Assembly: GCA_977020255.1 (NCBI GenBank)
Contig: CDROCS010001585.1
Span: 496,001-560,000, forward strand
Direction: 5' to 3'
DNA length: 64,000 nucleotides
From: Obrimoposthia wandeli
Taxonomy: Eukaryota
Made by a program: the position numbers and the translations under genes. The notes beneath the pieces were generated by a model, which did not search any database, was not told the DNA's origin, and saw nothing but the letters and a program-made list of their open reading frames with translations. The first letter of the stretch is position 1. Each line of letters starts with the position of its first letter. This document shows, piece by piece, positions 61,080-64,000 of the stretch.

Positions 61080-62010
61080 AATATTTAAACAAATTATCAC
61101 AGGCCCATCATTTCACGAAGTCTGACAGGTACGCTGGTCTTCTCTTCACTTCTCCTCACCTTAGAGCTGGACCGTCTGTGTCTACTGTTTGTTCCCCAAG
61201 ATTATAATTCTCATTCGTAAATGCAAAGTTCTGATAACATTTATGGACGAAAGCTTCTTGAATTGCCACATAAAATTTATTTTACTGGTTCTCTTTCTAA
61301 GAAAATTTCACTCTGAACGTTTGATATGTTCCCAGCATCTTTATTCGGTATATTTTTCTAAATTGCAAAACGGCTTGAACCACTTCCGAAAATTGTTAAA
61401 TACAATGAATCACGATAATGTGTAACGTCGATTGCAAGCTGGGACCATACATCATCAACACTTAAATTCCCTTACTCTCAAGATATCAGATTGGAGTCGA
61501 TAGATTTATACTTATAGCAACTTTGAAGTACATTTATTATTTATTTATCAAAGATTAGGTGATGCTGGACATTTTAATTTAATTATCATCATTTCATTTA
61601 ACCAGACTCTCGGTACTCAGGTGAGTCTATCTGATATATTTTTTTCCGATCTTACAAAGCGTTACTGAAATATGTATGTTCATTTCTTCTTAGATATTTT
61701 TTAATGATACCTAGCCGTCTCATTAATAGCAATTCTGAACTACCTCGAGTCTGGAATTTATTTTCTCCAGTCAGTGTGGCCAAAATCCACCAAAAGACCG
61801 TGGTGAGTCAGTCAGTATCTCAATATTATTTAAACTCTATGAAACTCCCAATGTGAGGCCCTTGATAACAGCATCCAGCTCAGCAACATTAATGTGTCCA
61901 TATTCTGTATTTTTCCTAAGATGTGACATATCTTCTAATATTTCATTGTCGATTTCAACACAAGCATCTAACGCGATATTAGTTGCATCACACCACACAC
62001 AATCTGTTAA
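61080..62010 (-). mobile_element. Ty3/Gypsy-like element 2, RNase H + integrase part
   Basis: Minus strand CVWCDATNIAL...LEDMSHLRKN..GHINVAELDAVIKGL...EILTDS...LMRRLGII...VRSEKNISDRLT, then VWSQLAIDVTHYRDSLYLTI...SRFAI and a terminal RRPAYLSDFVK*. Confidence 0.85.
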
Positions 62011-62137
62011 ATAACAAATTAGTTTAATTGTTTAAACAGATCAAAAAATTAAATGTATTTAAAAAATCAATATTTGTTATGGAAGAAGTTATCAGATGTT
62101 TTTAAAACGAATAAAGATTTTAAACATGTTTTGTGAT

Positions 62138-62878
62138 TTGGCTTATTATGAAGATTATTTTGAAACGGAAATTTTACGTGGCAAGTCTAAGCCCAATCGC
62201 TTAATTGTCGATGATTCTGTTAATGACGACAACTCTGTAATATCAATGTCTCAAAAGAAAATGGACGAATTACAATTATTCCGAAATGATACTGTTCTTA
62301 TCAAAGGAAATAAACGCAGAGAGACAGTTTGAAACGCATTACTAGATGAAACTTGTGCAGACGAAAGAATTAGAATGAACATATGTATAAGAAGTAATTT
62401 ACGAGTAGAATTGGCCGATGTACTGTCTGTACAGCCATGCCCAAACATCAATTATGGAAAAAGAATACATATTCTACCACTAGATGGGTCTATTGAAGGA
62501 GTAACTGAAAATATTTACAATGTAGTTCTGAAACCTTACCTTGTTGAGGCCTATCGATCAGTGAGAAAGGGTGATATCTTTGTTCGTGAAAAATGTGTGC
62601 AGTAGAATTCAGAGTTATAGAAACAGAACCTAGTCTATTTTGTATTGGGGCACCCGAAACAGTGATTCATTTTGAAGGAGATCCTGTGAAAAGAGCAGAT
62701 GAAGATGAAAAGTTAAATTAAATCGGATATGACGATATTGGTGGCTGTCGTAAACAACTGGCTCAAATTAAAGAAATAGTTGAACTACCATTGAGACATC
62801 CACAACTGGAGTTAAGCAATTGGAGTTAAACCACATAGAGGGATCCTCCTTTTTGATCCTCCAGATACGAGTAAAACA
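62138..62878 (+). pseudogene. VCP: Intronless, 3'-truncated VCP/p97/CDC48 pseudogene (N-domain to D1 Walker A)
   Basis: [53 protein letters not shown]...RIRMN..IRSNLRV...[17 protein letters not shown]...[18 protein letters not shown] / [28 protein letters not shown]...[29 protein letters not shown] / [21 protein letters not shown]. Contains stops and frameshifts; ends at the Walker A GKT equivalent. Confidence 0.95.
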
Positions 62879-64000
62879 CAACTTCTTAACTCTCTTTTTA
62901 CTAACCATGTGCCCTTTATGTTCTGTTTTGATCTTGTGTAACACAAAGCTTAAAATATTATTTGTTACATCACCAATCGCATATGTCCATGCCACTACTT
63001 CAGCTGTACTCTTTATGTAGCTACATGCCAATCTTAGCCATCAACCCACTGAATAGTGTTCAACCAATTGACAACATACTGAGAAAAACTTTATACGAGT
63101 TAGTGGTTAATCGATTTTGTTGTTTCTTGACCACATTAGTAAACCATTTGCCTTATTTAGACACAATCTCAGAACTCTTGCTCATCGATTAGTTCTGAAT
63201 CTTTTGAGACTAGTACATATTTTAATAGATATTTCTTGACTGTATCTACACTTATTTTACTTATGTCAACAACAATGTCGTATATATAACTATATGTCGC
63301 TTCATTTATTGTGGAATCCAAAGATAGAACTTTCTTTAATATTTTATTCATAATTCGTAGTGCACAATTTAAACTGAAACCTACCCGAGTAAGCGTATAA
63401 TTCTTCCAACAGTACCTTCACCAAAATCTGTCTAAAGCAATTTTTAGATAGGCTGTATTTAAATCTAAAAGTGTCACATAATCGACTATTTTCCTCCTCT
63501 CCCTGATCGTTTCATGGCACACAGAAATATCCCCTGAATGAATGGACATGTGTCTATTTAACTGTCTAAAATTAAGAACTGGTCTAACATTCGATTTGTT
63601 CACCTGTTCAACTGTTATTAATGGTGTCAACCCGTAGAATGCAACGTTAAATTCTATGAGCCGACCGCTATCTAACAAAATCTGTTATTCGGCACTCCAG
63701 TCCTTTTTGAATTGAAGTTTTATTTCATAATCACTAACTTTGTTTCGAAGAATGAGTGGATTACAAATCGAAATCCATTTAACATTCCATAAACTTCCAT
63801 CGAACTTTGCACTAAATCTGTAACATCTATGCCAAGGCTTGAATTTACTGAGATGGCAGCGGTGACCTGATTTCCAAATGAAGCACTTACATCTCTAATA
63901 GTATCTCCACCTACTTCATTTATTGCATTCATCCCCAAAATAAAATCGAAGCCAACATGTTATGAGTTCACTACTAAGTATTCCACTGCGCACTTTCTTT
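62876..64000 (-). mobile_element. Ty3/Gypsy-like element 2, protease + RT part (continues beyond window)
   Basis: Minus strand GFDFILGMNAINEVGG (protease tail), GLTPLITVEQVNKSNVRPVLNFRQLN, TLLDLNTAYLKI, YTLTRVGFSLNCA, YSYIYDIVV (YIDD), WLRMACSYIK. Colinear with 61080-62010. Confidence 0.88.

Follow-up and report, generated by a model that had tools for sequence, protein, structure and literature searches.

A solo LTR made largely of host VCP coding sequence in Obrimoposthia wandeli, and its likely origin by mRNA capture in a BEL/Pao retrotransposon

How did a piece of VCP/CDC48 coding sequence come to lie inside a decayed Gypsy-like pol, with the 5′ end of the message kept and its 3′ end lost? 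The question is raised by a locus near the end of the window, the 64,000-nucleotide stretch analysed here (assembly GCA_977020255.1, contig CDROCS010001585.1, positions 496,001 to 560,000). A preliminary description had seen a one-off cDNA-like insert at a single locus. The identity of the fragment and its orientation, on the plus strand and antisense to the minus-strand pol, were borne out: the insert contains two Pfam CDC48_N matches (E 5e-7 and 1e-3, both below the curated cut-off), and 662 of 745 nt (89%) are identical to the spliced coding sequence (CDS) of the host VCP gene on contig C64. As described, the fragment stops in the D1 Walker A motif, whose Thr codon is its terminal ACA. The explanation that we regard as likely is that the insert is a BEL/Pao solo LTR, the 3′ 740 bp of which are VCP mRNA, probably acquired in one capture at the start of minus-strand synthesis.

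The limits of the insert follow from its relatives. The 911-bp stretch of the window has at least 43 DNA matches in its own genome (40 of 223 candidates scored), and the first 48 codons of the VCP piece have at least 128 protein matches (150 of 178 candidates scored). Many copies begin and end at identical bases and define a unit, TGT...ACA, of 874 bp (Table 1); the earlier estimate was about 865 bp within 61997..62889. VCP sequence accounts for about 740 bp, or 85%, of this unit. The interrupted Gypsy-like element provides empty sites: eight of its ten other copies join both flanks with the insert absent, which agrees with the claim that no pol sequence had been removed. Compared with these insert-free copies, the window has 5 extra nucleotides (five copies), 4 (two copies) or 10 (one copy). 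Since the copies share their ends and the empty sites show five extra bases, the imperfect 14-bp repeat reported to flank the insert is a 5-bp duplication extended by chance into the LTR's own termini. None of the ten other Gypsy-like copies carries the insert, contrary to the suggestion that this element had transduced it; the Gypsy-like element is a landing site only and is older than the insert. Its Pfam matches are just RVT_3 and DUF7047, and its protease-RT-RNase H-integrase order was read by eye. The possibility of an assembly chimera had been raised as a check. A second contig, C104, carries the same insertion at 96% identity, and public-run contigs of one sample, possibly the source of the assembly itself, span both junctions, with 0 differences over 137 nt at the right one and 2 differences over 114 nt at the left one. 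On present evidence the junctions are not an assembly chimera.

Table 1. Features of the VCP-containing insert and its landing site (positions within the window; U3, R and U5 labels are predictions)
Feature	Positions	Strand	Basis
Left target-site duplication, 5 bp	62000..62004	+	Sequence; empty sites; family-wide duplications
Very probable solo LTR, type A, BEL/Pao, TGT...ACA	62005..62878	+	Copy-shared ends; primer site or polypurine tract beside other copies; internal Pfam domains
Apparently element-derived part, predicted U3 + R; AATAAA at 62110-62115	62005..62138	+	Start as in VCP-free sister LTRs
Spliced host VCP mRNA fragment, CDS nt 2-744, predicted U5	62139..62878	+	Host CDS alignment, tree, substitution counts
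Exon 2/exon 3 junction; host 1,572-nt intron absent	62508..62509	+	Comparison with host gene
LTR terminal ACA, Thr codon of VCP D1 Walker A	62876..62878	+	Host CDS alignment
Right target-site duplication, 5 bp; 3/5 match left	62879..62883	+	Empty sites, copy alignment
Interrupted decayed Gypsy-like pol, upstream half (landing site)	62884..64000	-	DUF7047; relatives
Interrupted decayed Gypsy-like pol, downstream half; left limit approximate	61100..61999	-	Relatives; RVT_3 in two of these

The repeated unit has the properties of an LTR. TG...CA termini are present in the window copy and in many of the 25 type-A and 7 type-B places (the types are described below); the terminal dinucleotide is mutated in several copies, and types C and D end in AA. 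At 13 solo loci the target duplications, read by eye, match at 57 of 65 bases against 1.4 of 5 for cross pairs; this count omits C104 and C6162 (same sites), C281, C1438 and C126 (unclear start), and copies lacking an end. A primer-binding site directly follows the copies at C1192, C1249, C700 and C76 and agrees with the 3′-terminal bases of a genomic tRNA-Met(CAT) gene followed by CCA, presumably that of the initiator tRNA. A purine tract and integrase-type sequence precede the copies at C2214, C3611, C1462, C3020, C1000 and C3530. The Pfam domains of linked internal regions, RVT_1 and Peptidase_A17 at C3611 and DUF1759 in the sister element at C2614, make up the BEL/Pao set and support the assignment of the element to this group. 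With these features the insert is almost certainly a solo LTR of a BEL/Pao retrotransposon, a family with many copies and different from the one that it interrupts, and not the single-locus cDNA first described. An intact element with a VCP LTR at each end was not found among the regions read. On contig C2271, two partial type-D LTRs separated by 22.5 kb are 88.7% alike and make up a candidate single element only; VCP-free sister elements do have two LTRs. Hitch-hiking on Polintons was considered for the partial copies near PolB-like ORFs at C20 and C1928 and was rejected because C20 shares only the LTR unit of about 750 bp with other loci. Contig C1928 (L043:5699-8815) also contains a 10.6-kb tandem unit with a 1,039-aa ORF, in which a PolB-like start (by eye) is followed by transportin-3/importin-13-like repeats, possibly a host gene fused to a Polinton-like PolB end.

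The sequence upstream of the VCP codons, about 125 nt, had been taken for a VCP 5′ UTR. In three of three copies, the upstream stretch of about 130 nt matched the 120 nt upstream of the host VCP gene no better than shuffles did. This 5′ part starts like the VCP-free LTRs of about 185 bp found in sister elements with the same internal region: ungapped matches to the sister LTR starts reach 30-33 of 40 in five of seven copies, with shuffle maxima of 26-28, while the window copy (26/40) and the one at C700 (27/40) are not above shuffles. In gapped alignment, these AT-rich LTR starts exceeded the shuffle maximum in only four of eight comparisons with sister LTRs. Positions of about 65-135 of the LTR have no clear single parent, and an AATAAA lies near positions 101-106 in five of seven copies. 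By the likeness of its start, the first 130 bp or so of the insert is apparently element sequence and not VCP UTR. VCP-free sister LTRs exist for both BEL families in which the VCP piece occurs, and the last five bases of sister LTRs are also those of the VCP piece.

Contig C64 contains an intact VCP ORF of 820 aa, interrupted by introns of 43, 1,572 and 90 nt; the contig shares repeats with many other contigs. The VCP piece extends from codons 1-5 to codon 248; its 5′ junction can be placed no more exactly than CDS nt 1-14. Of 27 copies, 24 align across the exon 2/3 junction with no gap, and the other VCP genes read are only 66-72% identical. By these comparisons the donor is the host's own intron-containing VCP gene, via its spliced mRNA. 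Intron 2 is decisive for the spliced origin; intron 1 is not decisive for the LTR. Splicing of exons 1 and 2 was dropped as LTR evidence because most copies depart from the host at 5 of the first 13 CDS bases. Among named single-length proteins, the best matches of VCP are from flukes, at 91%, in keeping with a flatworm host. A compact AT-rich host gene or a foreign eukaryote had been proposed as donor, on the ground of a low GC3 (18 of the first 57 codons). The count is 17 of 57 in the insert and in the host gene alike and so carries no information on a foreign donor. Two further loci were set aside: C1858, a candidate second intron-containing donor, is a type-B LTR split by another insertion, and C455, removed from the copy list, is a paralogous gene. 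On C64 (L049), immediately past the VCP stop codon, there is a tandem duplication with a unit of about 475 bp that takes in roughly the final 130 nt of the CDS and the 3′ flank. Uninterrupted AAA-ATPase ORFs of 650-700 aa are numerous in the assembly (C253, C506, C1324, C122 and others); some sit on a multi-megabase contig and may be bacterial sequence within the assembly.

A tree was built from 26 LTR copies together with the host gene and one internal copy; every LTR copy falls on one side of a branch supported at 100/99. The tree and the substitution counts omit the near-duplicates C104, C6162 and C1000 (416k and 293k), C1213 and C281 (large insertion or deletion), C455, and all type C and D copies. 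The LTR copies have 26 non-host sites in common, which indicates one capture; the 26 copies tested have one common origin. Type B forms a clade (100/99) nested within type A. It has a different 5′ part of about 430 nt, whose junction lies near LTR position 97, immediately upstream of the AATAAA, and the internal sequence on both of its sides belongs to a second BEL family (family B). The internal regions of the two families are only 65-72% alike, over short stretches. Nesting and flanks together show a later passage of the VCP cassette into this second family. Family-B sequence on both sides is what an intermolecular first strand transfer would be expected to give, and the move from A to B has the look of such a transfer, here between two element RNAs. 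Around the short N-terminal matches, family-B LTR sequence lies beside the VCP piece in 27 of 27 further regions, most of which are trimmed types C and D that retain 200-300 nt of VCP and are flanked by 5-bp duplications of their own. At C1502 (L121:1570-1670), in a much shortened type-A LTR, VCP is reduced to about 30 nt from the Walker A end, and primer-site-like sequence follows.

The captured sequence shows no sign of a coding role. The window copy has three in-frame stops and two frameshifting indels, and stops or frameshifts occur in 26 of 26 copies. The ratio of non-synonymous to synonymous change is 0.89 for private changes and 1.05 for changes found in 2-5 copies, and the type-B stem carries 13 non-synonymous changes and 1 synonymous change. 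The VCP pieces in these 26 LTRs are broken and drift neutrally. The suggestion that an N-domain-only p97 product could have bound cofactors is therefore unsupported. That the VCP piece was kept for some benefit to the element, for example as an N-domain decoy protein or a silencing decoy, is a very improbable reading. It could draw on the 21 host differences common to most copies, of which 17 are synonymous and 4 non-synonymous, and on the persistence of the piece through the family switch. However, host-side evolution since capture can account for the constraint in these differences (17 changes at 162 synonymous sites, compared with about 0.065 on tip branches). The ratios above, the type-B stem and the damage in all 26 copies speak against a benefit too, as does the reduction of the VCP piece in the later, commoner types. 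It is likely that the VCP-LTR spread to about a hundred places as broken, functionless DNA.

The 3′ junction suggests a template switch during first-strand synthesis. Just past the breakpoint, the host mRNA resembles the primer site in register at 10 of 12 bases, with one bulge. By a score chosen after this likeness had been noticed, 6 of 2443 CDS positions attain its level, and among 151 CA-ended positions the breakpoint ranks first, with no tie. The junction is unremarkable by duplex energy or by the best match anywhere: equal or better windows number 34 of 2587 (12 nt), 101 of 2584 (15 nt) and 188 of 2581 (18 nt), and the match of U5 end plus primer site was equalled somewhere in 147-199 of 200 codon-shuffled CDSs. 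The terminal CCA of the tRNA pairs poorly at the VCP breakpoint site. As to the particular route, we lean slightly towards a jump of the reverse transcriptase onto co-packaged VCP mRNA at the start of the minus strand. The tRNA-Met primer, probably with the last few LTR bases added, would have paired with the look-alike 3′ of the VCP Walker A codon, and the mRNA would then have been copied towards its 5′ end. The strong-stop DNA would have moved to element RNA near the poly(A) signal, so that VCP sequence replaced U5 and was copied into both LTRs, its codon ACA providing the CA end needed by the integrase. The family may then have amplified, and LTR-LTR recombination may have left solo copies such as that of the window. 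A single event, capture in the first-strand transfer, would explain why the 5′ end is intact, why the VCP piece lies within the LTR and how a usable CA end arose. According to the portion of PMC5086612 that deals with these steps, cellular RNAs become packaged, and a first transfer may be intermolecular.

A rather unlikely alternative is a two-step history, in which a longer VCP cDNA entered the LTR or leader, through an ordinary double template switch or in the form of a LINE-made retrocopy, and was later cut back to the Walker A codon by a microhomology deletion. The deletion would lie between the primer-site look-alike and the true primer site, and the same likeness at the breakpoint is thus predicted. 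Deletion and trimming are frequent in these elements, as types C and D demonstrate, and a separate capture closer to the host gene lies just 3′ of the primer site at C1589. Two rare events are needed, however, and no intermediate was found: among 98 matches to the 110 codons past the breakpoint, three reach 85% or more (C64, C668 and C1514), and as read none is a retro-element copy. An improbable history is 5′ read-through, in which an element in VCP exon 3 lost its 5′ LTR and a spliced chimera transcribed from the VCP promoter supplied a 5′ end serving as R-U5. It would yield the same polarity and splicing and make co-packaging unnecessary, but host exon 3 is intact and scar-free, the LTR has no VCP 5′ UTR, and a disrupted allele would be required of VCP, normally an essential gene. 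A single cDNA patch, a foreign donor or Gypsy-like transduction would fit the appearance of a lone locus only; we give them practically no weight in view of the many matches throughout the genome, the occurrence of the donor gene within the assembly, on a contig with repeats in common with other contigs, the distance of the other VCP genes and the insert-free Gypsy-like copies. Of the three routes first put forward, the cDNA patch and the transduction thus fall away, and template switching in the LTR particle is the one favoured here.

Further host-gene pieces were observed at BEL/Pao primer sites. At C1589 (L065:4710-5330) a VCP copy lies inside a BEL/Pao element, just 3′ of the primer site. 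Both introns are absent, a short piece of host 5′ UTR is present, and the copy ends near CDS nt 552; it is 94.6% identical to the host, groups with it, and is likely to be a second, independent and later VCP mRNA capture. In family A, a DEAD-box helicase piece (Pfam DEAD 8.5e-6, Helicase_C 7.5e-9) and then an HSP70 piece (1.9e-14) come right after the primer site (C1176, L120:925-2210; L122, L123 and L125; after the primer site at C1192, C1249 and C700). At C2271 (L209:3870-4170) and C1495 (L206), a type-D 5′ LTR and primer site precede a chaperonin-like piece (Cpn60_TCP1, E 0.0018, below the cut-off). At C2560 (L071:1753-2361) an ORF past the same primer site joins HSP70 and glutamate-dehydrogenase-like pieces. 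Elsewhere, C307, C737 and C571 (L133-L138, L151, L152) contain tandem arrays of units of about 227 bp with tRNA-Met genes; most of the units read have no anticodon arm, and a few are complete. ARAGORN and Rfam returned no tRNA in the C307 array, and the full tRNA-Met genes are from C737 and C571.

The parallels in known systems are partial. The view that the insert is RNA-derived and not LINE-made was upheld. Like LINE-made processed pseudogenes, whose hallmarks are taken from part of PMC5131818, the VCP-LTR is intronless and has a target duplication; unlike these, which keep an intact 3′ end with poly(A) and vary in 5′ truncation, it is spliced without poly(A), is truncated at the opposite end and has fixed shared ends with TG...CA termini. 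LTR-mediated retroposition in animals (Tan et al. 2016, PMC5131818), as sections of that paper describe it, places an element-flanked retrocopy in exchange for internal ORF sequence, and its cases include one in a Pao element (BATUMI). They share with the VCP-LTR a partial spliced host mRNA in an LTR element, later rounds of retroposition and, possibly, short junction similarity. In the cases so described the retrocopy is internal, between two LTRs, as is the C1589 copy, whereas the VCP piece lies within the LTR, forms most of it, supplies its terminal CA and occurs as free-standing solo copies with about 130 nt of element sequence. In the TRIMs Cassandra, Helenus and Ajax, host-derived RNA sequence is likewise fixed in the LTR; by the relevant passages of PMC10886601 it is 5S rRNA or tRNA, kept as Pol III promoters and proposed to stem from SINE insertion. 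The sequence captured in the VCP-LTR is protein-coding CDS and not the small-RNA-derived sequence characteristic of such TRIMs (TRIMp3), it decays neutrally, and the elements have BEL/Pao gag-pol remains. For BARE-2 and long Veju, parts of PMC13317346 report abnormal template switching by which an LTR element gains foreign sequence; in BARE-2 this sits in the LTR itself. This is a precedent for switching and parallels the passage of the VCP-LTR out of family A into family B; in BARE-2 and long Veju another retrotransposon or unknown DNA was the donor, and here it is a host mRNA. In the literature searched, no protein-coding mRNA forming an LTR was found; subscription papers and the supplements of PMC5131818 may hold one.

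These observations can be joined in a reading that we offer tentatively, with a little less than even confidence. A chance primer-site look-alike would have set strong-stop DNA on VCP mRNA, the 5′ end of which became the U5 of a working LTR. Integration, entry into a second BEL family and solo-LTR formation would then have left about a hundred 5′-intact, poly(A)-less fragments, with the BEL/Pao primer end as a recurrent entry for abundant mRNAs. The insert shows that 85% of an LTR can be host coding sequence and that it can yet integrate with normal target duplications. The VCP-LTR may be read as the fossil trace of one particular reverse-transcription error, from which a testable prediction of the start of U5 follows, and as a route to dispersed processed pseudogenes that are unlike LINE products and contain almost no recognisable element sequence. 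For the genome of Obrimoposthia wandeli, about a hundred CDC48 N-domain matches are repeat fragments and not gene duplicates. If the joint reading is true, the BEL/Pao primer end would be a recurrent entry point for mRNA, as the DEAD-box helicase, HSP70, chaperonin and second VCP pieces may indicate, and an overlooked source of 3′-truncated pseudogenes.
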